The notes under the pieces: generated by a model
Told to the model about the DNA's origin: nothing
Seen by the model: the letters and a program-made list of their open reading frames with translations, nothing else
The model's database searches: none
Shown here: piece by piece, positions 1-33,568 of the stretch
How the letters are laid out: every line of letters starts with the position of its first letter
Numbering within the stretch: position 1 is the stretch's first letter
Translations under genes and position numbers: made by a program
Origin: a virus
Lineage: Duplodnaviria > Heunggongvirae > Uroviricota > Caudoviricetes
Direction: 5' to 3' (one strand)
IMG/VR virus record: IMGVR_UViG_2534681672_000004
Length of the DNA stretch: 33,568 nucleotides

Positions 1-723
1 ATGCTTTCCCACTCTTTTGAAGATCTTGCACAGGCCTTTCGGGTTTTATTAGAGTCTAACTGGTCACTACAGCGTTTGTTGGCTATTGATCGTGCTGAAG
101 CAATTGGCAATTTAGAATCGGGCCTGAATACACAACTTAATGCTTTTCATAATTTGTATGACAACATGCAAAGCAATGGATTAGAGCCTGACTGGTATTT
201 GAAACCTGAATTATTAATGATGCTTGTTATTCGAAATGCTCGGCATCATAACAAGGCCAACCGTATTAGAAGTATTTATAACTATCATCGTCAGTCCATG
301 AACGACCCTACACAGCAAAAAAACTATTTTTATGTGAATTTCCCGGCACCTCCAGAGGAAGAAGGTGGTGGCTATTTTGAGGTTCCTATCTCATGGGGAG
401 ATATTGATAAGATGCTTTCTCTGCCGCGTCAAGAATCGAGACTCCGACCAGAGGCCAAAGAACGTATACGTGATTATTTAGATGCTAATTCATTTGAAGC
501 ACAAGCAAACCAGCTAGGTCTCACAAAAGAAGATATATTCATCAACTATGTGCCGTTATCTATGAGCGCTGGAATCGCACTTCATCCATTCATCAAAGAT
601 AATATTTCGCTTAATGATGATTCGGTTGAAGCTAAAAGCTTTTTATCGCTTTTTGCTTCAACACATCCTGCGTTAACAAAGCAACATATCTGCAAGGCGA
701 TAGCTTTTTCATTACCAATCTAA
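1..723 (+). CDS. Hypothetical protein, AT-rich, no recognisable motif; may be 5'-truncated by the window edge
   Basis: 240-aa ORF ending at TAA 721-723, followed by a hairpin terminator. Composition is visibly more AT-rich than the adjacent phage late genes. Lies outside ogr, so either prophage-end cargo or flanking DNA. Confidence 0.45.
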   Translation: MLSHSFEDLAQAFRVLLESNWSLQRLLAIDRAEAIGNLESGLNTQLNAFHNLYDNMQSNGLEPDWYLKPELLMMLVIRNARHHNKANRIRSIYNYHRQSMNDPTQQKNYFYVNFPAPPEEEGGGYFEVPISWGDIDKMLSLPRQESRLRPEAKERIRDYLDANSFEAQANQLGLTKEDIFINYVPLSMSAGIALHPFIKDNISLNDDSVEAKSFLSLFASTHPALTKQHICKAIAFSLPI

Positions 724-7407: not shown

Positions 7408-7986
7408 TCAGGGTTCGCCGGTGGCTGACACAACGGGATTTGTCGCCGGAAATTTTTTATACAGCGTCGATATGCCCACATCAAAAATCAGTGCAACACG
7501 CTGTCGGGATTCTCCGGCCGCAATCAACCGGCCAGCCTGAGCCCATTCATCAGGCGTCAGCTTCGGCCTACGACCTCCGATCCTGCCTTGTGCCCGGGCT
7601 GCATCCAGCCCGGCGCGGGTTCGTTCGACGATTAACTCGCGTTCCATTTCTGCAAGAGCGCCCATGATGTGAAAGAAAAATCGCCCCATCGGGGTTGAGG
7701 TATCAATACTGTCGGTCAGGCTTCTGAAATTAACCCCTCGCTGGCGAAGCTCTTCAGTCATAGAGACAAGATGGCGCATGCTACGCCCGAGCCTGTCGAG
7801 CTTCCAGACAACGAGAGTATCACCGGCATTAAGTTGCCTGAGTGCGCGATTTAACCCTGGCCTGTTTGTCGATTTACCGCTGATTTTATCCTCGAAAATT
7901 AGCTCACATCCCGACCGTTCCAGCGCGTCACGCTGTAGCGCGGTATTTTGTTCATTTGTTGATACGCGCACATAGCCAACCTGCAT
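7408..7986 (-). CDS. Serine-recombinase DNA invertase (Hin/Gin/Cin/Pin family)
   Basis: N-terminus MQVGYVRVSTNEQNTALQRDAL... with catalytic-Ser motif; C-terminal HTH (GESRQRVALIFDVGISTLYKKF); GAGGGA RBS before ATG at 7986; sits beside an invertible tail-fibre segment. Confidence 0.9.
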   Translation of the reverse strand: MQVGYVRVSTNEQNTALQRDALERSGCELIFEDKISGKSTNRPGLNRALRQLNAGDTLVVWKLDRLGRSMRHLVSMTEELRQRGVNFRSLTDSIDTSTPMGRFFFHIMGALAEMERELIVERTRAGLDAARAQGRIGGRRPKLTPDEWAQAGRLIAAGESRQRVALIFDVGISTLYKKFPATNPVVSATGEP

Positions 7987-13083: not shown

Positions 13084-14427
13084 CTAGCTTGGGGTAACTG
13101 TAACCTGACGAGAAAAAACAACAGGCTCCTTCAATTGCTCACATATAATTTTAAAATTAATAACTCCAGAGCCAATCGTTAAGGGAATGATGACTATTTC
13201 CTCATACTCAACAGTTAAGCTCTGTAACACTTTTTTCGCACGCAACGTGATTTTATGGTCCTCTTTCATGACCCACTCATCTTGGTTAACTGTTCCTAAA
13301 TCAGCCATCCGTTTAATTATTGCTGGCACTTCGAAATGAGGTTTAGCCATTACCATCGATGTATCATCAAAAATACCCATCCTAAAATTTTCGAGTGACA
13401 TTATAGCACTGAGTCTTTTTTTATGCTTACTTATTGGGGACTCAGGGATTTTTAATTTCGGCTCTTTTATAAATAAGTCTTCATTAGAACCTTTAAGCAC
13501 TATTAGGAATTCAGGAAAATCAATCTCAACATAAACATTTGACGCAAAAGTCCTCCCATTATTTCTTAAAACGGGCTTCACTGTAATTGCATTGTTTTTG
13601 TAATTACAGTGCAATCTCATTTTTTTATTATATAAATCCACATCTTTATCAGTAGGCAGTGAAGAGTTATATGATTCAATCTCATCAATGGTGATAGTGT
13701 CCTTCAACTCAAGAGGTACCGCTTCCTTGCATAGTTGTGGAAGGTAATCCTGATAAGTCGACTCCACATCCACCGTCAAAGCTAAGTCATTATCAATCAT
13801 GCTCAGCTCTAATTGAGGTGCATCGCTATGTAATTGGCTTTCATATTCGCGGACTTTTTCCCTTAATTTTCTATTTTCATTAGATAGCTCAGCCAACTCG
13901 GCGGTAATCTCTTTAGATGCGACCTGGTCACCGCGCACCCATCCTATTCGTGGATTTCGTCGCATTACTTTTGGTAAGGCGATAGCAACCTTCGTCGCTA
14001 ACTCATCAATTGTCTCCCAAAAATCACACATTTTGTTAGCTTTAGCTTTTTCAATAAAAGCATTTAGTTGCTTTTCTTTTTGAGGGTCACTTTCTCGTTC
14101 ATGTGGTTTTGTTAAAACGTCCCTCCCTCTAATAAAAGCCAACACCGGTATATTTAATGATTTAGCATAGTTATATTCCATTTCAGTATAGCTAATACCA
14201 TCTTTAGAAACGGACCCATACTTATGCCCAATGATAATCACATAATAATCACTAGCATCAATAGTCTCCTTTATTATATCCCACTGCTCAGAGTCATCAG
14301 CGCTAAACATCTCCATGCCAACTGGAAAGTGGTATAAACTAAGGACCGTTTCTATGATTTTTTTGCGAGCATCAATTAAATCGACGTATGTAGAGCTCAC
14401 AAATACTTGATATTTTTTATTTTCCAT
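13084..14427 (-). CDS. AT-rich cargo protein with N-terminal DUF4062-like (TIR/SLOG-like Rossmann) motif, central coiled coil and uncharacterised C-terminal domain; candidate anti-phage/accessory gene
   Basis: Start at ATG 14427 (MENKKYQVFVSSTYVDLIDARKK...) with GAGGA RBS. The VF-SST..DL...R and YYVIIIGHKYG motifs match my recollection of DUF4062. Inserted between S and V, which are adjacent in P2; strongly AT-rich by eye. Confidence 0.65.
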   Translation of the reverse strand: MENKKYQVFVSSTYVDLIDARKKIIETVLSLYHFPVGMEMFSADDSEQWDIIKETIDASDYYVIIIGHKYGSVSKDGISYTEMEYNYAKSLNIPVLAFIRGRDVLTKPHERESDPQKEKQLNAFIEKAKANKMCDFWETIDELATKVAIALPKVMRRNPRIGWVRGDQVASKEITAELAELSNENRKLREKVREYESQLHSDAPQLELSMIDNDLALTVDVESTYQDYLPQLCKEAVPLELKDTITIDEIESYNSSLPTDKDVDLYNKKMRLHCNYKNNAITVKPVLRNNGRTFASNVYVEIDFPEFLIVLKGSNEDLFIKEPKLKIPESPISKHKKRLSAIMSLENFRMGIFDDTSMVMAKPHFEVPAIIKRMADLGTVNQDEWVMKEDHKITLRAKKVLQSLTVEYEEIVIIPLTIGSGVINFKIICEQLKEPVVFSRQVTVTPS

Positions 14428-23296: not shown

Positions 23297-23983
23297 TTAT
23301 TGCTTATCTTGTGGTGGTGGAACCTCTTTTTCTAAATTATCTACATACTCTCTAATATTGAATGCTTTGTTTTTCCTTATTTCGGTAGTGTTAACCTTAC
23401 TAACACCATCACGAATGTTTTTATTTATGGTGTCTATTAATTTTTGTCTTTCTTGTTCTGTTTTTATTATTTCACTTAAGAATGACTTTGCGTTTCTTGA
23501 AATGTCCGTCTGTCTATTAATGAATAGTATCGCATACACTGAAAAAACCAAGCAAGTAGTCGTTAGTGCGGAATTAAAAAATACCCCATAATAAACATTA
23601 ACTTTTGTTATTGACGCTGATAACGTTAGTGATATCAAAAAAAACAAAATCAGGGTAAAAATATATGCAATGGTTACTTTGTTTTTAGTGGTGTCAAGAA
23701 TGTATGAAGTTCTTTGATCATCAAAGTAATCCTTTATCCTTGATGGAGTGTTTGCGGGGAGTTCTAACTCCTTTATTTTATCATCAGCATCAATTAGTCG
23801 CTTAAACATGAGGCTAATGATTACGGCGCTAAAGACAGAGATCCCCTTTGAAATTATAGGATCGAAATCAATTAAAAATGAGTATTTTGAATAAACAAAA
23901 ACAATAACAAAACCACATATAAGCCCAATTACAATTGAGCTTGCTATGTTTTTTGCATATGTTTGTAACGTATTGTTTATCAT
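23297..23983 (-). CDS. Four-TM membrane protein, second gene of an AT-rich two-gene cargo operon (candidate effector)
   Basis: Four hydrophobic helices followed by a charged C-terminal tail; ATG overlaps the upstream gene's TGA (ATGA coupling); strongly AT-rich. Confidence 0.7.
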   Translation of the reverse strand: MINNTLQTYAKNIASSIVIGLICGFVIVFVYSKYSFLIDFDPIISKGISVFSAVIISLMFKRLIDADDKIKELELPANTPSRIKDYFDDQRTSYILDTTKNKVTIAYIFTLILFFLISLTLSASITKVNVYYGVFFNSALTTTCLVFSVYAILFINRQTDISRNAKSFLSEIIKTEQERQKLIDTINKNIRDGVSKVNTTEIRKNKAFNIREYVDNLEKEVPPPQDKQ

Positions 23984-24963
23984 GGGTTAATTACTCCGGT
24001 GTCTAGTAAGCGCAATAACCATGAAATCATTTCTTCAGCAACGTTGTCAGCAATTAGCATTCCATTGCTGTATTCAATATTAACTGAATCCTTTAGTTGA
24101 ATCTCATCATTCCTGAGTATTCCTGCACCTTTTAACTCAATTGTTAAGCTTTCATCTCTATTATCAACCAAGCCTTGTGTAATTTTACGCAACATGTCTT
24201 GCTCAGACTCGCTTGCTTTATATTTATACCCAATGGAAATATCAATTGATAGAGATTCCCTGTCAGGTGAACCATCATTTAAAATGGTATTTTTCTTCAT
24301 TTCATTAATTCGATGTTCACCTACGAGCGTTTTTAATAGCTCACTAGCTGTATCATCAATATTATTTCCATAGTAGGTTAAAGGCAGCTTTAAGCTAACA
24401 TTTTTTACTATGTTACGTTTTAAAAAATCCGTATTTAGAGACAGGTTGTTTGCCTGTAAAACGATGAAGTTATCATCAGTAATAGATAGGTTGTCTTGTA
24501 GTATGAAATTTATATAATTTTCAATATCTTTTATTCTAATAGATCTGCTTTGCAGAATTATGAAGTGGTTCTTAATCACACCAATGTATGCAATGCTTTC
24601 TAAATACTCTCTAGCATTCCCACTTGATAAATTTAATGTCTCGTATGTTAAAGCTGTTTTAGCATAATCGCTAACAGAGAAAACAGGAATGCTACTACCC
24701 GGTTCAATATAGACAATTTCCGCAAAAAACATTCCATGAATTTCTTTGCTATTTGAAAGAACCATGTGGGCGTGAGCAGCGACATTACCATTATTATCTG
24801 GAACATCAGGGAAGAATAATCTATCAGCAACATTTGGAACCTTGATTTTCACAAGGTTTGCCAACCTATCTTGCAGGTTTGATGTTAAAAGAGCATCCTT
24901 TTTAGGAAGCATTATTGCATGGCGATAATGCAGCATTTTACTCTTATAATCTTGCGTTGCCAT
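23980..24963 (-). CDS. Hypothetical cytoplasmic protein, first gene of the AT-rich two-gene cargo operon (candidate sensor/enzyme)
   Basis: 327-aa ORF with GAGGGA RBS before ATG 24963; no motif I can recognise; between portal gene Q and cos. Confidence 0.7.
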   Translation of the reverse strand: MATQDYKSKMLHYRHAIMLPKKDALLTSNLQDRLANLVKIKVPNVADRLFFPDVPDNNGNVAAHAHMVLSNSKEIHGMFFAEIVYIEPGSSIPVFSVSDYAKTALTYETLNLSSGNAREYLESIAYIGVIKNHFIILQSRSIRIKDIENYINFILQDNLSITDDNFIVLQANNLSLNTDFLKRNIVKNVSLKLPLTYYGNNIDDTASELLKTLVGEHRINEMKKNTILNDGSPDRESLSIDISIGYKYKASESEQDMLRKITQGLVDNRDESLTIELKGAGILRNDEIQLKDSVNIEYSNGMLIADNVAEEMISWLLRLLDTGVINP

Positions 24964-25334: not shown

Positions 25335-25517
25335 CTATTCAGCCTTATAGAAAATTTCGTCTTTTTCTTCGTCGCTTTCGCTGTTAGCTAGGCCGGCAAT
25401 CAGAGTTAGTGCCAGCTTCAAATCTGCCGGTTTGCAGTTGGCAATAAGAGATATCTCGGCGATAAATTGCACACAAGCCCACTTTTGCTGCGTTCGGCTG
25501 AAATGTTTCCCAACCAT
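25335..25517 (-). CDS. Small SOS-regulated protein, possible Tum-like antirepressor
   Basis: 60-aa ORF with GGGAGGG RBS; a near-consensus LexA box lies about 20 bp upstream; position downstream of A matches tum in phage 186. Confidence 0.5.
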   Translation of the reverse strand: MVGKHFSRTQQKWACVQFIAEISLIANCKPADLKLALTLIAGLANSESDEEKDEIFYKAE

Positions 25518-25537: not shown

Positions 25538-25557
25538 TACTGTGTATTTATACAGTA
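25538..25557. promoter_or_regulatory. LexA operator (SOS box)
   Basis: TACTGTGTATTTATACAGTA matches the E. coli LexA consensus TACTGTATATATATACAGTA at 18 of 20 positions, with perfect CTGT-N8-ACAG. Confidence 0.8.
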
Positions 25558-25706
25558 TAACGTATTGGCAAAAGATGGGAAGAGAAAAAGTGAATCGGGT
25601 AGGTGTTGTATGTACATGATATGGATGTAAATTAATCACCTGTGAGTTTTGATGTTTCTGCCAGCACCGCAACACGATTAAGGATTTCCCTAGGCTTTGC
25701 CTGAAG

Positions 25707-27854
25707 CTATGGCGCTGCGGAGAAAATTTCACCTTTGGACGTTCCACGCAACCATTTACCGTTAATACAACTTTTGCCACCTGCTATCAGGTGCAGGGCT
25801 TCTCCCCGGCTGATGGTAATGCCGGTTGTCAGACGGATCTCGTCGATAGTTTTTTCTATCGGAGCACTTTGCTCATCTGTTCCGTGGATAAATTTCGGCC
25901 TCTTAGGTGGCTTTGGTTTCCTGATTCGGTTCGTCAGCTCTCGCCTTTCACGTCGACTCAGGGGTTTTGATAAATCGAGTTCCGGTGGATCGCTTTCGCT
26001 TCCCGTACAGTTATTGACAGAACTCCAAGGGACGGCGAAGCCGTCCTTAACGTCAACGGCCAAATCAACGGCACGCTTCGGAACAATTTTCCATTGCGTG
26101 AGCCGGGTTAAAATCGGAGTGCCAACACCAACGGTGGAGTCGTACACACCACGAATGCAGACAGTTTCCTCACCATACTGGTTAAACTCGGTGCGCGGTT
26201 CATAAAGCGTACGCACCTGCAAATCATCGCGACGGACAAACGGACCGCCCTGCGCATTAACATAGCCAGCCCAATCACCGGCATCGGCGGCATCATGGAC
26301 AGCCGCAAACTCAACACTTAGACCGTGCGCGGTCTCGGTATCTGCAAGGCGACGCAATTCACGATAAACAGTCACTGGTGCACCACCGATAAACTGAAAC
26401 TGACGAATATGCCAGCGCGCCGCCCATGCTGAAACGGCGGGGGCTGTCTCTTTCAACAGTTCACCGTTTTCGTCATCGGTTTCGTCATCAAGAGCGTAAC
26501 CGTCGATATTTTTCGAGATGTATTTCGCGACGTAGCCGGTTGCGCTGCCTTTCTCCGGATCAATGGCTTCTGCGTGGAAACGTGCTTTTTTGGCTTTATC
26601 GCTTTTGAGTTCGTGAAAATCTTCTTGCCATGCGTAGTCCCGAATAATGCCACGAACGGTATCGACGTCCTCCGGGAGCATAAACATCAGCATATGCCAG
26701 TGAGGGCACCCGTCATGGTGAGGCTCTGCAACGCGGATCCCGAAAATACGAATGTCTTCACGGTGGAGTTTTGCGCGAATGCGTGCCCACAGGCCAGTGA
26801 GATAACATTGCGTATCGGATGGATTGGATCCATTCCATTTGGTGTTACGGTAGCCTGCCTTTGTCGTGGCGTGATATTTAGACGGTGCGGTCAGGGTGTA
26901 AAACTCACCAACATAACCGAGCTCATTGCAGATATTTTCAAACCCACGAATGCGGGTCATAAGCTCACAGCGTCGAATCGCAGAGTTAGCGACTGAACCA
27001 TCGTATTTTTCAATCAGGCTGATACGGTTGCCGTCTTCGTCTTCAAGCTCCAGACCTTTGAGAAATTCGCGCGTCCGGCGCTTCTGTTCACGCCAGTCTG
27101 TCACGCAGTTTTTACTCGCGTAGACATGTTTTTTCTTACTGACATTTCCGATTGCGATTTGCAGGTGTTCGCGCCACGCAGCCGCAATGCGACGCAGACG
27201 GCCACGCCACCATTTTTCCGAAAACATACGGGCAATTGCTGGAGCGACTTTATCCTGATCCCAATATTTATCCCGCGACCGTTCCCACTCTGGTGGCATT
27301 ATCCTGAATTGCTGAGTGATGAAACCAGCATGCATATACCAGGCATTTAATGTCTCCAGTTCACACATGTCAGAATCGTCAATGTTGACTAACTCTGCAC
27401 GGATAAAATCGGCGATATCAGCAGCCAGCAGGTCGATGTCGGCGCGTGCCATATCCGGGAGTCGGTTGTATCTGGCGACTATGTTGACCATGCGAGACGC
27501 CAGATATTGCATAAGCTGAGTATCGAAATGACAACCGAAAACAGCGGCTGATACGTTGCTGTTAATACCGGTACACTCGTATTTTTTTGCGACCAGTTCA
27601 AAACGCGGCAATGCCTTTTTGCAGAAGCTTATTAAAAAAGCATTGGCTCGTTGACTGCCCTGATTTTGCTCCAGCACCGCAGCAGTGCGATAAACGTCAA
27701 AACGTACACACTCGGGCTGGAGGGAAAGCACCTTTCTAGCATGCAGCAAAGCCGCGAGCATACGGTCGCGGCGATACTGTTGGTCGTAGGTAAGATATGG
27801 ACTGGCTATTGCCGACCGTGGAGCATTCCACGGAAACGCGAATTGAACAGCCAA
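25707..27854 (-). CDS. A: Replication initiation protein gpA (rolling-circle initiator)
   Basis: 715-aa ORF; region ...IRVAEPHHDGCPHWHMLMFM... and ...YVAKYISKNIDGY... with the active-site Tyr context characteristic of P2/186 A. Confidence 0.9.
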   Translation of the reverse strand: MAVQFAFPWNAPRSAIASPYLTYDQQYRRDRMLAALLHARKVLSLQPECVRFDVYRTAAVLEQNQGSQRANAFLISFCKKALPRFELVAKKYECTGINSNVSAAVFGCHFDTQLMQYLASRMVNIVARYNRLPDMARADIDLLAADIADFIRAELVNIDDSDMCELETLNAWYMHAGFITQQFRIMPPEWERSRDKYWDQDKVAPAIARMFSEKWWRGRLRRIAAAWREHLQIAIGNVSKKKHVYASKNCVTDWREQKRRTREFLKGLELEDEDGNRISLIEKYDGSVANSAIRRCELMTRIRGFENICNELGYVGEFYTLTAPSKYHATTKAGYRNTKWNGSNPSDTQCYLTGLWARIRAKLHREDIRIFGIRVAEPHHDGCPHWHMLMFMLPEDVDTVRGIIRDYAWQEDFHELKSDKAKKARFHAEAIDPEKGSATGYVAKYISKNIDGYALDDETDDENGELLKETAPAVSAWAARWHIRQFQFIGGAPVTVYRELRRLADTETAHGLSVEFAAVHDAADAGDWAGYVNAQGGPFVRRDDLQVRTLYEPRTEFNQYGEETVCIRGVYDSTVGVGTPILTRLTQWKIVPKRAVDLAVDVKDGFAVPWSSVNNCTGSESDPPELDLSKPLSRRERRELTNRIRKPKPPKRPKFIHGTDEQSAPIEKTIDEIRLTTGITISRGEALHLIAGGKSCINGKWLRGTSKGEIFSAAP

Positions 27855-28795: not shown

Positions 28796-29305
28796 TCATA
28801 CCAAACCGAATGTTGCGCCAATGCCGGTCATGGTGTCGACGACGCTCGACATTGCCGGGTTAGCCTGGAGGCGAGCCTGTAACGCCAGCGCCGACAATGA
28901 CAGCATGCGAATACCGGCGTTAACGCTTTCAACCATGTTGTGTTTACGAGCAGAGGTCAGGCGTTCATCAGATGCAGCACCGTTCGCCAGTTCGCCGAGT
29001 TCGCTCATTGCGCGCATGACATAGGACTGCAATTTATCTTTAGCCAACTCATTAACCGGCACACAAGGTAGACAATGGATCTGCGCCAGAAAGCCATCAA
29101 CGAGGGTTGAGTCTTCGGTCAGATCAGTCAGCAGCCATAACTCAGGCGGTGTGAACTGGTGAGGCTGTTCCGGGTTAAGTTTGTTACGTAACGTCTGAAC
29201 ATTCATACCCGCATGCTCGGCCAGCTTCGCCATATTGTGACGCTGCGCGAAAGCCCGGCACGCTTCGTCATAGTGGGGATGTTTGGAAATTTGAAAATCA
29301 AACAT
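28796..29305 (-). CDS. cII: CII-like transcriptional activator (phage 186 CII homologue)
   Basis: 169-aa protein; sequence MFDFQISKHPHYDEACRAFAQRHNMAKLAEHAGMNVQTLRNKLNPEQPHQFTPPELWLL... is near-identical to 186 CII as I recall it. Confidence 0.85.
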   Translation of the reverse strand: MFDFQISKHPHYDEACRAFAQRHNMAKLAEHAGMNVQTLRNKLNPEQPHQFTPPELWLLTDLTEDSTLVDGFLAQIHCLPCVPVNELAKDKLQSYVMRAMSELGELANGAASDERLTSARKHNMVESVNAGIRMLSLSALALQARLQANPAMSSVVDTMTGIGATFGLV

Positions 29306-29340
29306 GTATTTTCCCTCGCTATCTTAAATAATCGAGTTTC

Positions 29341-29565
29341 TTAGGCTGCCACATAGCGGCAATTAAGGCCCTGAGCCAAGAGTCGAGCACGGAAGGCAAC
29401 CATATTGATACGCGCAGCACCACCGTCTTTTTTACGGGGCATCAGGAGGAGATCTCCATCAGCAACCATCTGTTTTACAGTGCGAATGCTGTAGCCGTAG
29501 CATTCAGCAAATTCGTCATAAGTCATGAGATCCGCGCCGGACGGGATTGCAATTTGTGGAGTCAT
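29341..29565 (-). CDS. apl: Apl/Cox-like excisionase and lytic-promoter regulator
   Basis: 74-aa HTH protein, first gene of the rightward-equivalent lytic operon, divergent from cI. Confidence 0.7.
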   Translation of the reverse strand: MTPQIAIPSGADLMTYDEFAECYGYSIRTVKQMVADGDLLLMPRKKDGGAARINMVAFRARLLAQGLNCRYVAA

Positions 29566-29690
29566 AAGTAATCATCTCCGGTTACTAGTTGGTTTGGTGC
29601 ATTGGCGTGCATTTTTAAATTCAAGCGAGAATCTTATCTCGAAAAAGCGAGATGTCAATTTGGATTTTCGCGATAACTCGGATTTTTAAG
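29566..29690. promoter_or_regulatory. Divergent pR/pL switch region with candidate CI operator repeats
   Basis: Repeated AAGCGAGA / TCTCG elements forming palindromes (GCGAGA-N5-TCTCG at 29625-29641; TCTCG-AAAAAG-CGAGA at 29637-29652) between apl and cI. Confidence 0.5.
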
Positions 29691-30269
29691 ATGAAATTGG
29701 ATGAGTTAGAGGGTGGAAAAGCAGTGCTGCAGCGCATCCTTGATGCGTATGGCTTCACCATGCAAAAACAACTCGGTGACTTGCATGAGCTGTCATCGGG
29801 AACAATCAGCACTTGGGTTCGGCGTAATTTTTTCCCCGGGGATGTTGTTGTTGCATGCGCTTTGGACACTGGGGTGTCTTTACGTTGGTTGGCAACAGGG
29901 AAGGGGAACAAGTTTGATGCAGACCATACTAATGGCGAAATGAAAACATTAGACCGATTGGATATTGTTGCAGGTAAGCTGCAGGAAAACGGTCATTGGA
30001 TTGTTGATGCTAACCTCTTTTCTACTGAGGCGACGCACCCCAATTACATAGTAAAAGGCCAGCAGTCCTGGATAGTTGATTTTGATATGACTGATATAGC
30101 AAATGGGCGATGGATGCTCAGTATCGACGGGGATCATGATGTCTATGACGTTGCAAGGATCCCGGGGAACAGAATAAAAGTCAGCAACGCTGATGCCGAT
30201 TTTCAATGCTCAGTTTCTGAGGTTAAGTGTATTGGCATGGTGCTGGTAAGCCTGACGAAATCTAGCTAA
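29691..30269 (+). CDS. cI: CI immunity repressor (186-type)
   Basis: Start MKLDELEGGKAVLQRILDAYGF...; N-terminal HTH pattern resembles 186 CI as recalled; first gene of the leftward-equivalent operon ahead of int. Confidence 0.75.
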   Translation: MKLDELEGGKAVLQRILDAYGFTMQKQLGDLHELSSGTISTWVRRNFFPGDVVVACALDTGVSLRWLATGKGNKFDADHTNGEMKTLDRLDIVAGKLQENGHWIVDANLFSTEATHPNYIVKGQQSWIVDFDMTDIANGRWMLSIDGDHDVYDVARIPGNRIKVSNADADFQCSVSEVKCIGMVLVSLTKSS

Positions 30270-30273
30270 CGAT

Positions 30274-30815
30274 ATGAGTGTTAAAAAACTGACATCGGGT
30301 GAATGGCTTTGTGATTTCCGCGTCGACGGGGCTGAAAGTCGCCGCGTGCGTAAGAAGTTTTCAACCAAAGGTGAAGCCGTTGCCTTCGAGCAGTATTACC
30401 GAGAAGAGGCACAAAATAAGCCGTGGATGGGTGAGAAGGAAGACCGTCGACGTTTGAGTGAACTGATTGAGCTGTGGCATAACCTCCATGGCCAGTCGCT
30501 CGCTGCCAGCAAATCGCGATTGGCCAAACTGCACATTGTTTGCCGGGGTCTTGGCGACCCAATCGCTACCCAGCTTACCGCCAAAGATTTCGCCCATTAT
30601 CGGGATAAACGTCTCAAGGGTGAAATCGACAATGGCTATCACGCAAATTCTGAAAAGTGGATTGCGAAACCTGTGACTGTGAACCGGGAACAACAGTACC
30701 TCGAAGCTGTTTTCAATGAGCTGAAGCGCTTGGGTGAGTGGAGTCTGCCAAATCCTCTCGAAGGTGTGCGAGTTTTCAAAGAAGCCGAAAAAGAAATGTC
30801 TTGGCTTACCCAGCC
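30274..30815 (+). pseudogene. int: Integrase, N-terminal fragment (interrupted by IS10)
   Basis: Reading frame ends ...KEMSWLTQP then a stop created inside the IS10 end; continues in frame at 32145 once IS10 and one target-duplication copy are removed. Confidence 0.85.
30807..30815. repeat. IS10 target-site duplication, left copy (TACCCAGCC)
   Basis: Identical 9 bp immediately flank both IS10 ends. Confidence 0.85.
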
Positions 30816-30860
30816 CTGATGAATCCCCTAATGATTTTGGTAAAAATCATTAAGTTAAGG

Positions 30861-30930
30861 TGGATACACATCTTGTCATATGATCAAATGGTTTCGCGAA
30901 AAATCAATAATCAGACAACAAGATGTGCGA
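30861..30930 (-). ncRNA. IS10 RNA-OUT antisense RNA (approximate position)
   Basis: Placed from established IS10 organisation (pOUT transcript antisense to the 5' end of tnp, near the outside end); coordinates not read from the sequence. Confidence 0.4.
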
Positions 30931-32131
30931 ACTCGATATTTTACACGACTCTCTTTACCAATTCTGCCCCGAATTACACTTAAAACGACTCAACAGCTTA
31001 ACGTTGGCTTGCCACGCATTACTTGACTGTAAAACTCTCACTCTTACCGAACTTGGCCGTAACCTGCCAACCAAAGCGAGAACAAAACATAACATCAAAC
31101 GAATCGACCGATTGTTAGGTAATCGTCACCTCCACAAAGAGCGACTCGCTGTATACCGTTGGCATGCTAGCTTTATCTGTTCGGGCAATACGATGCCCAT
31201 TGTACTTGTTGACTGGTCTGATATTCGTGAGCAAAAACGACTTATGGTATTGCGAGCTTCAGTCGCACTACACGGTCGTTCTGTTACTCTTTATGAGAAA
31301 GCGTTCCCGCTTTCAGAGCAATGTTCAAAGAAAGCTCATGACCAATTTCTAGCCGACCTTGCGAGCATTCTACCGAGTAACACCACACCGCTCATTGTCA
31401 GTGATGCTGGCTTTAAAGTGCCATGGTATAAATCCGTTGAGAAGCTGGGTTGGTACTGGTTAAGTCGAGTAAGAGGAAAAGTACAATATGCAGACCTAGG
31501 AGCGGAAAACTGGAAACCTATCAGCAACTTACATGATATGTCATCTAGTCACTCAAAGACTTTAGGCTATAAGAGGCTGACTAAAAGCAATCCAATCTCA
31601 TGCCAAATTCTATTGTATAAATCTCGCTCTAAAGGCCGAAAAAATCAGCGCTCGACACGGACTCATTGTCACCACCCGTCACCTAAAATCTACTCAGCGT
31701 CGGCAAAGGAGCCATGGGTTCTAGCAACTAACTTACCTGTTGAAATTCGAACACCCAAACAACTTGTTAATATCTATTCGAAGCGAATGCAGATTGAAGA
31801 AACCTTCCGAGACTTGAAAAGTCCTGCCTACGGACTAGGCCTACGCCATAGCCGAACGAGCAGCTCAGAGCGTTTTGATATCATGCTGCTAATCGCCCTG
31901 ATGCTTCAACTAACATGTTGGCTTGCGGGCGTTCATGCTCAGAAACAAGGTTGGGACAAGCACTTCCAGGCTAACACAGTCAGAAATCGAAACGTACTCT
32001 CAACAGTTCGCTTAGGCATGGAAGTTTTGCGGCATTCTGGCTACACAATAACAAGGGAAGACTTACTCGTGGCTGCAACCCTACTAGCTCAAAATTTATT
32101 CACACATGGTTACGCTTTGGGGAAATTATGA
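30923..32131 (+). CDS. tnp: IS10 transposase
   Basis: 402-aa protein MCELDILHDSLYQFCPELHLKRLNSLTLACHALLDCKTLTLTELGRNLPTKARTKHNIKRIDRLLGNRHL..., recognised as IS10 transposase from memory. Confidence 0.95.
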   Translation: MCELDILHDSLYQFCPELHLKRLNSLTLACHALLDCKTLTLTELGRNLPTKARTKHNIKRIDRLLGNRHLHKERLAVYRWHASFICSGNTMPIVLVDWSDIREQKRLMVLRASVALHGRSVTLYEKAFPLSEQCSKKAHDQFLADLASILPSNTTPLIVSDAGFKVPWYKSVEKLGWYWLSRVRGKVQYADLGAENWKPISNLHDMSSSHSKTLGYKRLTKSNPISCQILLYKSRSKGRKNQRSTRTHCHHPSPKIYSASAKEPWVLATNLPVEIRTPKQLVNIYSKRMQIEETFRDLKSPAYGLGLRHSRTSSSERFDIMLLIALMLQLTCWLAGVHAQKQGWDKHFQANTVRNRNVLSTVRLGMEVLRHSGYTITREDLLVAATLLAQNLFTHGYALGKL

Positions 32132-32144
32132 GGGGATCTCTCAG

Positions 32145-32153
32145 TACCCAGCC
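32145..32153. repeat. IS10 target-site duplication, right copy (TACCCAGCC)
   Basis: Identical to 30807-30815. Confidence 0.85.
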
Positions 32154-32649
32154 TCAAATTCGCGAAGTGCTCAATGCTTGTGAGTCATACGGGAAAATTT
32201 ATTTAACCCGTATCGTCAAAGTGTGCTTAGCGACTGGTGCTCGATGGAGCGAGGCCGAGCGTCTTACTCGTTCACAGCTTTCACCCCACAAGTTGACTTT
32301 CACTAAAACGAAGGGAAAGAAGAATCGTACAGTACCGATCCCTCGGTGGCTATATGACGAGTTGGCTCCTTTACAGGGAAAAATGTTCCACCCCTGCTAT
32401 CAGGAGTTCAAGAAAATGCTCGCTCTGACCGATATAGAGTTAGCTGAAGGGCAAAAAACGCATGTGTTACGTCATACATTTGCGAGTCACTTTATGATGA
32501 ATGGTGGGAACATTTTAGTACTGCAACGAATCTTGGGCCATTCTAACATTAGGGAAACCATGAGATACGCTCATTTTGCACCAGATCATTTAGAAGAAGC
32601 TGTAACTCTTAACCCTATTTCTAATTTAACAGGATTATATGATGAGTGA
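32145..32649 (+). pseudogene. int: Integrase, C-terminal catalytic fragment (tyrosine recombinase)
   Basis: Contains ARWSEAERL, HVLRHTFASH and RETMRYAHF (R...HxxR...Y catalytic residues); in frame with the N-terminal fragment across the IS10 junction (...TQP|QIREVL...). Confidence 0.85.
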
Positions 32650-33568
32650 GCCAACCATCGAAACACCTCCAAGAATGACCGAGGCCAAAGTCATTAGGGT
32701 ACGCACTCGTGGTTTTTATAATTTAGTTGAGATAGGTGCAGTCTTTCTAGTTGCAAATGTAATTTTTGCTACAGGGATATTAGACTCAACCTTTTATTAT
32801 TTATTTCCCAGTGCGAGAGCAGATCTTACACATTTGCCGAGCTTTATCAGGTCAATATTCGCAGTGTCATTTGTAATCGTTTACACCATTATCTATGGTG
32901 TGTCTCCAATCCAAAGAATGTTTATGAGAATTACAGGGAGTGATTCAGTCGACAAATCATCGATGTTTAATATTGTCGATATTATAAATGAGATAAAACT
33001 ACTCAAGAAGGCTCAAGAGGAAAGGGCTGCTGCTGATGAAGATGAATCTCTGGATTTTTATCTTAAAGGTTTGATTAATAGCTCTGAAGGTCTTGCGAAA
33101 AACATATATTCTCGCGGTAGTCTTTATTTATTAGTCGGTGTTTGTTTTGCAATAGTTGGATTAGGTTTCTTCTATTCTCAATCACATGTAATTGATGCTA
33201 AGGATGATGCGGTAACCAAGGTAATGTATCTTCTCCCTAATTTTGGCGTGTTGATTTTCTTGGAGTTAATCGCATTTTTCTTTTTGAAGCAATATCGGGT
33301 TACGATGGATGAGTTTCGCTATTACGAGGCAATAAAACGTTCACGTGAGGAAAGCTATGCCATTATAAAGCTTGTAATGGCTAGCCAGAAAGATATCGAT
33401 ATGATAGACCTTCTGGATAAAATTAATTTTAGCTCAAGAGTTGGAAAACTAGAATCAGGGCAGACTACTGAAATTATTGAAGCAAGAAAATTAGACAAAA
33501 ATGAACTTGAAACCTTAGTAAAGCTTACCGAGGCAGTTGCGGGTAAGATTGGACAGGGAAATAAGTAG
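32639..33568 (+). CDS. AT-rich four-TM membrane protein with a long C-terminal soluble region, overlapping the int 3' end; candidate lysogen-expressed accessory/exclusion gene
   Basis: 309-aa ORF whose ATGATG start overlaps the int stop by 11 nt; four hydrophobic helices; same strand as cI-int and sharply AT-rich. Confidence 0.6.
   Translation: MMSEPTIETPPRMTEAKVIRVRTRGFYNLVEIGAVFLVANVIFATGILDSTFYYLFPSARADLTHLPSFIRSIFAVSFVIVYTIIYGVSPIQRMFMRITGSDSVDKSSMFNIVDIINEIKLLKKAQEERAAADEDESLDFYLKGLINSSEGLAKNIYSRGSLYLLVGVCFAIVGLGFFYSQSHVIDAKDDAVTKVMYLLPNFGVLIFLELIAFFFLKQYRVTMDEFRYYEAIKRSREESYAIIKLVMASQKDIDMIDLLDKINFSSRVGKLESGQTTEIIEARKLDKNELETLVKLTEAVAGKIGQGNK

Follow-up and report, generated by a model that had tools for sequence, protein, structure and literature searches.

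Has the IS10 copy that lies within the integrase gene of an Escherichia coli prophage arrived there recently, and has it locked the prophage in place? A first-pass annotation of the 33.6-kb stretch of DNA analysed here (33,568 nucleotides, hereafter the window) had leaned towards yes on both counts, and had added that the cargo genes of the prophage would be stably retained as a consequence. We followed up these claims by comparing the window with complete genomes, public assemblies, phage 186 and known integrase structures. The features concerned are collected in Table 1.

Table 1. Features of the interrupted integrase locus and its neighbours (positions in the window)
Feature	Position	Strand	Remarks
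Apl/Cox-like excisionase-repressor	29341..29565	-	Intact; PHROG 575 'Cox-like excisionase and repressor', 3e-20
cI repressor	29652..30269	+	First gene of cI-int-orf309; Pfam Phage_CI_repr and Phage_CI_C
int 5' fragment	30274..30819	+	181-aa product; arm-binding and core-binding part; from the ORF list
Left target-site duplication, TACCCAGCC	30807..30815		9 bp; abuts left end of IS
IS10 (IS10-right type / ISVsa5)	30816..32144	+	1329 bp exactly; single element
IS10 transposase	30923..32131	+	402 aa, uninterrupted
Insertion-created 173-aa ORF	32128..32649	+	ATG at IS10 nt 1313 overlaps transposase stop (TTATGA)
Right target-site duplication, TACCCAGCC	32145..32153		9 bp; abuts right end of IS
int 3' fragment	32154..32649	+	Residues 182-345; catalytic domain lacking 6-10 residues at its start
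orf309	32639..33568	+	Last gene before attR; overlaps int stop (ATGATGAGTGA)

When the IS and one of its flanking repeats are deleted, the two integrase fragments join into a single open reading frame of 1038 nt (345 codons, no stop), which reads ...SWLTQP to the left of the junction and QIREVLNACE... to the right. This bears out the continuous frame proposed by the first-pass annotation, and at 345 aa, versus 336 aa for 186 Int, the product is indeed of normal length for a P2/186 integrase. The intact Int carries the accession WP_000111946.1. The reconstructed protein matches Pfam Int_N (5e-34) and Phage_integrase (4e-21), is 53% identical to 186 Int, end-to-end and gap-free at the junction, and shares about 38% identity with P2-type integrases. 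The gene lies beside the immunity repressor and next to att, in the order cI-int-orf309-attR, in the source contig as well as in E. coli FORC 064, whose copy of the prophage is IS-free. On these alignments, it is a 186-type tyrosine integrase.

Structures of the HP1 and P2 integrases served solely to locate the break point. Alignments to 1AIH, 5C6K and 5DOR gave E values of 1e-59, 9e-54 and 4e-38, respectively, with the active-site motifs all conserved. The catalytic domain of HP1 Int (1AIH) aligns to Int residues 172–338 and that of P2 Int (5DOR) to residues 177–338, placing the break, after residue 181, some 6–10 residues into the catalytic domain, so that the DNA-binding half and the catalytic residues are separated onto different fragments by IS10. 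The upstream fragment aligns with residues 1–172 of 186 Int and contains Int_N at residues 57–169; its last codon, 181 (CCC), takes IS10 nt 1, and IS10 nt 2–4 supply a TGA stop. The downstream fragment, which is without a native start codon, carries R211, H284, R287, H310 and Y319, all conserved and aligned with the HP1 and P2 structures, together with a Lys-rich β-hairpin (TKGKKNRTVP) that would hold the catalytic Lys. The insertion has also created a 173-aa ORF that joins nine IS/TSD-derived residues (MRGSLSTQP) to Int 182–345, and for which the annotation of the source assembly has no gene call.

The inserted element is a complete IS10 with an intact transposase, as had been noted, and its transposase matches Pfam DDE_Tnp_1 (1.5e-24) and, above cut-off, the NCBIfam IS4 family transposase model (4e-121). 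The outside end lies at 30816 and the inside end at 32144, with transposase and int co-directional; the transposase ATG is at IS nt 108 and its stop ends at nt 1316. The terminal inverted repeats are imperfect (~23 bp, the ends agreeing at 17 of the first 22 positions), and GATC occurs at two sites only, nt 67 (in the pIN -10 region) and nt 1320 (in the inside end), Dam being a regulator of IS10 (PMC5006887). The copy is 100% identical to many plasmid-borne copies and matches, at 99.9% identity, a feature that GenBank labels IS10 transposase / IS10-right-like; PGAP names such copies IS4-like ISVsa5. Compared with IS10-right of Tn10 (IS4 family; ISVsa5 isoform), there is no detectable difference in element features; here the IS10 stands solo, Tn10 not being present around it within the window. 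Many E. coli carry IS10 in multiple copies. The sole match for the region in the phage collection, CL707, was considered as a P2-type immunity region with IS10 and rejected: it is lambdoid (N, cI, cro, cII), matches the window in IS10 alone and is useful just for naming the IS.

Both ends of the element abut identical copies of TACCCAGCC, a 9-mer that has two occurrences in the whole window, both at the IS ends; by chance, a given 9-mer would be repeated at one fixed position with a probability of 4^-9, or ~4e-6. When the window was compared by BLAST with the IS-free FORC 064 prophage, in which TACCCAGCC is single-copy, the overlap between the two flanks was precisely the 9-bp repeat, which proves the target-site duplication that the first-pass annotation had recognised. 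The target fits the relaxed IS10 consensus NPuCNNNGPyN at all four specified positions and NGCTNAGCN at four of six (both consensus sequences from PMC4574204).

The interrupted allele is rare, and the uninterrupted one that we looked for elsewhere is not. Eleven complete E. coli chromosomes carry the reconstructed cI-int-orf309 locus in one piece at 100.0% identity over 2579 nt, confirming that the reconstructed gene is free of further frameshifts or stops; with two further complete genomes at 99.8% identity, 13 hold the locus unbroken. The IS10-int junction, in contrast, was found in 0 of 5426 complete genomes and is on record only in GCA_000194235.2 and the read-level assembly SRR066814. Likewise, the 181-aa truncated Int product occurs in 2 contigs of public assemblies, versus 832 contigs for the 100%-identity cluster of orf309, and neither the 5426 complete genomes nor the public-assembly contigs give any sign that the allele, a singleton, has recurred or spread. 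Since the other prophage coding sequences are all intact (39/39) and the element differs from an IS-free prophage copy by 9 SNPs over 32.2 kb, the insertion is, judged from these comparisons, both recent, as first suggested, and the sole lesion.

Turning to the prophage as a whole, tblastn with 186 proteins identified homologues of CII (93% identity), Fil (88%), Dhr (97%), D (77%) and B (68%), and gene A is about 85–86% identical to that of 186; with A included, these genes span 68–97%. P2-family annotations run along the whole element; the structural module is of P2 type and the early region of 186 type (apl, cII, fil, dhr, A). By its gene content, the prophage is phage-186-like (Peduoviridae). 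It shares with 186 the cI-int order, a further small cargo gene before att and an Apl-like recombination directionality factor on the opposite strand to int, which is the predicted excision partner of Int. It differs in immunity, in carrying orf309 in place of 186 orf69, and in its att, which is the 3' end of rplS (rplS-yfiB) here and the tRNA-Ile gene ileY in 186. The att sites lie outside the window, with attR intact in the source contig and attL expected ~205 nt to the left of window position 1. The att core was located by aligning the empty K-12 site with both junctions of FORC 064, whose flanks gave no att direct repeat, just an 11-mer belonging to two terminators. The tape-measure protein of the prophage occurs very widely (71 index blocks), and the loci retrieved with it were in other strains.

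Might this prophage have been dead already, through older decay, when IS10 arrived, making the insertion incidental? Two observations point that way. In the IS-free FORC 064 copy, PGAP marks gene A as a pseudogene for an internal stop, which the window shares, and no homologue of 186 Tum (nor of orf97 or orf69) was found by tblastn of the 186 proteins. However, the 715-aa A ORF is colinear with, and spans, all 694 residues of the functional 186 A before that stop, so that the PGAP flag reflects longer homologues and we discounted the stop as a sign of decay. At the position of tum there is a 60-aa ORF which, while lacking any Pfam or NCBIfam match, is directly preceded by a strong LexA box, TACTGTATAAATACACAGTA. 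In addition, a near-identical prophage occupies the same rplS site in hosts whose flanks have diverged by ~1%, and such near-clonality implies recent mobility. These findings and the intactness of every other coding sequence make prior death of the prophage improbable. The full lytic, replication and lysis gene set is kept, the prophage is by gene content probably lytic-competent and under SOS control, and the IS-free int allele is likely functional.

A second possibility is that the insertion was selected for its effects on regulation. The order cI-int-orf309 matches that of the 186 pL operon, and by analogy the layout resembles pL-cI-int-orf69-terminator-attP of 186. The cI gene lies upstream of the IS and is unaffected by it; its product is 28% identical to 186 CI, which makes the prophage heteroimmune to 186. 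By contrast, orf309, the positional counterpart of 186 orf69, now has IS10 upstream of it. Its product has four predicted transmembrane helices and, as its sole family match, PHROG 5157 (unknown function), with no Pfam or NCBIfam match; its AlphaFold 2 model, of modest confidence (pLDDT 66), yielded no PDB fold match better than E 0.25. A PADLOC assignment as Cas5a (E 0.0015) was discounted, as no stretch passed. Across 29300–33568 a consensus promoter and terminator scan did no better than shuffles, and for the promoter layout of IS10 we relied on the literature (PMC5006887, PMC4574204, PMC11481808). Outward promoters at both IS10 ends are reported to switch on adjacent genes (PMC4574204, PMC11481808), the weak pIII/OUTIIp promoters lying close to the inside end (PMC11481808). 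With 1.3 kb of IS separating it from pL/pE, orf309 would rely for its expression on read-through or on pIII/OUTIIp, which face it, and that expression may therefore be altered by an upstream IS in the same operon.

Selection could thus have favoured either the rewiring of orf309 by pIII/OUTIIp or transcription from pOUT antisense to int and cI, and it is suggestive that orf309, whose start overlaps the int stop, has homologues that persist longest where the prophage at this site has decayed to remnants. Nevertheless, RNA-OUT ends within IS10, at nt 47 (PMC5006887), the target fits the ordinary site preference of the element, and the allele is a singleton. A neutral or mildly deleterious hit accounts for everything, and we consider a regulatory advantage to be improbable, slightly more so than older decay.

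Could Int function nonetheless survive, either because the two fragments reassemble or because a related Int elsewhere acts in trans, leaving excision possible? The break lies near a domain boundary, the insertion-created ORF carries every catalytic residue behind an ATG that overlaps the transposase stop, and the reported outward promoters near the inside end (PMC11481808) could in principle transcribe it. Against this, the C-terminal fragment lacks the first 6–10 residues of the crystallised domain, the two halves are untethered, and the fusion ORF, for which no gene is called, would depend on IS transcripts that are very weakly expressed. Judging by lambda-type systems, arm-type tyrosine integrases bridge their sites only when arm-binding, core-binding and catalytic domains belong to a single chain. 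Rescue in trans faces the phage-specificity of Int, since identity is 53% even to 186 Int, which uses a different att site. Survival of Int function is for these reasons very unlikely. We hold just as little expectation for a two-piece Int whose catalytic half is expressed from IS10 transcripts, or for a reversible on/off switch of prophage mobility in which IS10 would, on rare occasions, excise precisely at its 9-bp repeats. If the halves of Int did associate, excision of the prophage would be coupled to IS10 expression, for example during transient hemimethylation by Dam.

Finally, a repeat-induced misjoin placing IS10 in int, as might be feared of a draft assembly and a multicopy element, is scarcely credible given that the 9 bp are perfectly duplicated here but occur once in the empty allele, and given a 460-kb contig of GCA_000194235.2 that spans both junctions, and an independent read-level assembly (SRR066814, L007) that crosses the same left junction 30 nt into IS10, showing that it is no artefact of a single assembly.

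We therefore return to a recent IS10 transposition into a 186-like int, with loss of excision in one E. coli strain, as very probably the correct reading. A single IS10 transposition hit int of the prophage, which is integrated at the rplS 3' end, and duplicated 9 bp of target sequence. Because IS10 nt 2–4 give an immediate stop, a 181-aa arm- and core-binding fragment could be made, leaving the catalytic residues separate and without a native start. It is likely that no full-length tyrosine recombinase is produced; as P2-like phages need Int to integrate and to excise (PMC3448106), excision dependent on Int and Apl, and re-integration, would both be lost. Given P2/186 biology and the position of the break, the prophage is very probably locked in the chromosome. 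It does not follow that its cargo is stably retained, and here the first-pass annotation overreached: with lytic, replication and lysis genes and a LexA-boxed gene all kept, derepression probably still kills the cell, and orf309 itself lies behind the IS in the operon. Upon inactivation of the repressor, the lytic programme would start in situ and yield hardly any infectious particles or none. The main effect would thus fall on the phage, through lost horizontal spread, and would not be a gain for the host.

This outcome has precedents. Excision-deficient int mutants of P2 and P2-like phages have been described (Lindahl & Sunshine 1972, cited in PMC3448106), and these likewise lose their single tyrosine integrase, with an expected phenotype of no prophage excision; they are, however, laboratory point or amber mutants, whereas the present case is a natural IS insertion. 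Among the defective prophages of E. coli O157 Sakai, Sp3, Sp11 and Sp12 have disrupted integrases, and other prophage genes in that genome carry IS insertions (PMC2669165). The three Sakai prophages are lambdoid and usually bear several lesions, whereas here int is the sole lesion in an otherwise pristine 186-like prophage.

Taken together, an IS10 hit in a prophage int is a real but ordinary event of an already well-known kind, and this one matters little beyond its strain. For annotation, it teaches that the IS and the integrase fragments on either side of it represent a single interrupted gene, and studies of 186-type excision could use the strain as a natural int-null control. With all else intact, the element has only just entered prophage decay rather than being an old remnant, and offers a clean, datable example of the first step. 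At the same rplS-yfiB site, the intact copies in 13 complete genomes, the IS10 allele, a large-deletion remnant in E2348/69 and a minimal remnant in Citrobacter form a natural series that could be used to study the immobilisation and erosion of P2/186-type prophages, and which cargo gene (here orf309) outlasts the rest.

The prophage integrase gene (int) is interrupted by a complete IS10, as the first-pass annotation had proposed. The element has paired ends (imperfect inverted repeats matching at 17 of the first 22 positions) and an intact transposase, whose ATG lies at IS nt 108 and whose stop codon ends at nt 1316; these positions and those of the only two GATC sites within the IS (nt 67 and nt 1320) are canonical IS10 landmarks. 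It is 100% identical to many plasmid copies and 99.9% identical to a GenBank feature annotated as IS10 transposase, IS10-right-like; PGAP names such copies ‘IS4-like element ISVsa5’. Across the 33.6-kb window the 9-mer TACCCAGCC has just two copies, flush with both IS ends, and when the window was compared by BLAST with FORC 064, an E. coli with an IS-free copy of the same prophage, the two flanks overlapped by exactly these 9 bp, which formally proves that the target site was duplicated. This target matches the relaxed IS10 consensus NPuCNNNGPyN at 4/4 specified positions and the original consensus NGCTNAGCN at 4/6 (both from PMC4574204).

Removal of the IS and one repeat leaves 1038 nt, a stop-free frame of 345 codons in which ...SWLTQP runs on into QIREVLNACE.... 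The product carries Pfam Int_N (5e-34) and Phage_integrase (4e-21) domains and aligns with phage 186 Int over the full length, colinear and gap-free at the junction, at 53% identity versus ~38% to P2-type integrases (e.g. L-413C), which puts it among the 186-type integrases of the P2/186 group. Its length (345 aa, compared with 336 aa for 186 Int) is normal for this group, bearing out the claim of a restored frame of ordinary size. We found no further frameshifts or stops, and a 2579-nt reconstruction comprising cI, int and the next ORF is present in one piece in 13 complete E. coli chromosomes, FORC 064 among them (11 at 100.0%, 2 at 99.8%); the reconstruction represents the real ancestral allele.

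Coordinates of features in the window and at comparison loci (L003, FORC 064 locus; L004, K-12 locus with the empty site)
Feature	Position	Strand	Details
Cargo ORF	1-723	+	240 aa; between attL and ogr/B
Invertase ORF	7408-7986	-	adjoins tail-fibre segment
Tail-fibre segment	8048-9906		1.86 kb
Cargo ORF	13084-14427	-	DUF4062 protein; between baseplate V and tail-completion S
Cargo ORFs, overlapping pair	23297-23983, 23980-24963	-	228 and 327 aa; between portal gene and gene A
60-aa ORF	25335-25517	-	at 186 p95/tum position; good Shine-Dalgarno
LexA box	25540-25555	-	TACTGTATAAATACACAGTA; near-consensus, strong; 23 nt upstream of 60-aa ORF
Replication gene A	25632-27854; L003 30101-32323	-	TTG start; 715-aa ORF
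int 5' fragment	30274-30819		codon 181 uses IS nt 1; IS nt 2-4 = TGA
9-bp repeats	30807-30815, 32145-32153		
IS10	30816-32144		1329 bp; starts CTGATGAATCCCC, ends GGGGATCTCTCAG
IS10 transposase ORF	30923-32131		402 aa, DDE, unbroken; Pfam DDE_Tnp_1 1.5e-24; NCBIfam IS4-family transposase 4e-121
Insertion-made ORF	32128-32649		173 aa; ATG overlaps transposase stop, runs into Int 182-345
orf309	32639-33568	+	overlaps int stop
orf309 homologues	L010 7337-8263; L011-L013 4001-4900; L014 4001-4870		
attL	L003 4245-4265		just beyond window
attR	L003 36808-36826		just beyond window
Empty site	L004 6090-6200		K-12

The break falls after residue 181, which structure-based alignment places 6-10 residues into the catalytic domain: that of HP1 integrase, as crystallised (1AIH), aligns to Int residues 172-338 (E 1e-59) and that of P2 Int (5DOR) to residues 177-338. 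The 5' fragment, which ends at once, retains the arm- and core-binding parts, while active-site residues R211, H284, R287, H310 and Y319 and the Lys-rich hairpin all lie in the 3' fragment, which has no native start codon. The candidate ORF that the insertion creates from this 3' part is missing from the gene calls of the source assembly, and a functional two-piece integrase, or a reversible switch based on the IS, strikes us as highly improbable.

The left IS10-int junction is absent from 5426 complete E. coli genomes (0/5426). The 181-aa truncated product, unique to this insertion, is on record on 2 contigs, as against 832 in the 100%-identity cluster of the neighbouring ORF, orf309. One is the 460-kb source contig (GCA_000194235.2), identical to the window across the 9295 nt in common; the other, from an independent read-level assembly of run SRR066814, spans the same junction, ruling out a single-assembly artefact. 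Leaving the IS aside, 9 SNPs over 32.2 kb and a flipped invertible tail-fibre segment distinguish the window from the FORC 064 prophage, and the window's first 8 kb are identical in two further assemblies. The insertion is recent, as had been suggested, and confined to a single strain.

The window is a complete 186-like prophage, in which CII, Fil, Dhr, A, D and B share 68-97% identity with their 186 counterparts and an Apl/Cox-like excisionase is present (PHROG 575, 3e-20). CI shares only 28% identity with 186 CI, so the phage is heteroimmune to 186. Each of the other 39 CDS in the annotation of the IS-free copy has an intact ORF in the window. In the PGAP/RefSeq annotation, gene A of FORC 064 is labelled a pseudogene because of an ‘internal stop’, which the window shares; we rejected this stop as a lesion, since the ORF before it spans the whole of 186 A (colinear with all 694 residues, 85% identity), and the pseudogene label is probably an annotation artefact. 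The four non-core ‘cargo’ ORFs had no PADLOC match, and their PHROG matches are all function-unknown. The tail-fibre segment has ~20-bp inverted repeats on each side, lies in opposite orientation in the near-identical FORC 064 prophage and adjoins a serine invertase gene (Resolvase/HTH_7, Pfam 5.7e-51); it looks like a host-range switch of the Mu G / P1 C type, with both states caught.

Aligned with the empty K-12 site, both FORC 064 junctions place integration at the 3' end of rplS, with an att core of ~GCG(Y)CTTAACTAA and a substitute rplS end and terminator that come from the phage. As 186-type integrases tend toward tRNA genes (PMC3448106), this site is an exception among them. On its attR side the source contig equals FORC 064 for 127 nt, beyond which host DNA is ~1% divergent; in other carriers, the left host flanks are 0.9% off FORC 064 and the prophage is identical to the window. 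That a near-clonal phage occurs in hosts that have diverged speaks for the intact Int allele being functional.

The gene after int, orf309, appears to be the third of a lysogenic operon, like 186 pL-cI-int-orf69-terminator-attP, and is now preceded by 1.3 kb of IS. The outside end of IS10, with pOUT, points toward the int 5' fragment and the inside end toward orf309. RNA-OUT terminates within the IS at nt 47 (PMC5006887), and weak outward promoters, pIII and OUTIIp, are reported within nt 1000-1230 near the inside end (PMC4574204, PMC11481808); given these and its position behind the IS, orf309 expression may be reduced or re-wired. The family consists of uncharacterised proteins of ~300 aa with four predicted TM helices, and for orf309 neither Pfam nor NCBIfam gave a match, PADLOC gave none that was credible, and a fold search of the PDB was also negative. 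Decayed remnants at rplS-yfiB retain orf309 to the last (tail genes, int tail and orf309 in E2348/69; only a 76-aa int tail and a 50%-identical homologue in Citrobacter portucalensis), and a Pseudomonas homologue adjoins Lamassu-type genes (LmuB_C, AAA_23). We regard orf309 as a candidate defence or exclusion gene expressed in the lysogen.

IS10, 186/P2 integrases and excision-deficient int mutants are textbook material. There is ample documentation of prophage genes disrupted by IS insertion or otherwise, and IS10 in int adds one more example of a known event rather than a new kind; in O157 Sakai, Int is likewise disrupted in Sp3, Sp11 and Sp12, and nu1 of Sp4 bears an IS (PMC2669165). Our literature search did not find this int::IS10 allele described. 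The original observation is confirmed and its interpretation supported save for a final clause on cargo retention.

In P2-like phages, integrase carries out integration as well as excision (PMC3448106), Apl/Cox acting as directionality factor (PMC7498355). A prophage that lacks full-length Int should not be able to excise, and because excision needs Int, it is sound to infer that this one would be locked in place. To add that its cargo is stably retained was, however, an overextension, since lytic, replication and lysis genes remain intact, a LexA-boxed ORF is present and orf309 has been displaced behind the IS. Comparison with 186 proteins found no Tum homologue; the LexA-boxed ORF, which has no Tum/DinI similarity and matches solely PHROG 1993, of unknown function, may represent a small antirepressor, new and under SOS control, that belongs to this immunity type. 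Once derepressed, the prophage would probably still kill the cell and yield no phage, so that the main effect of the insertion would be the loss of phage transmission.
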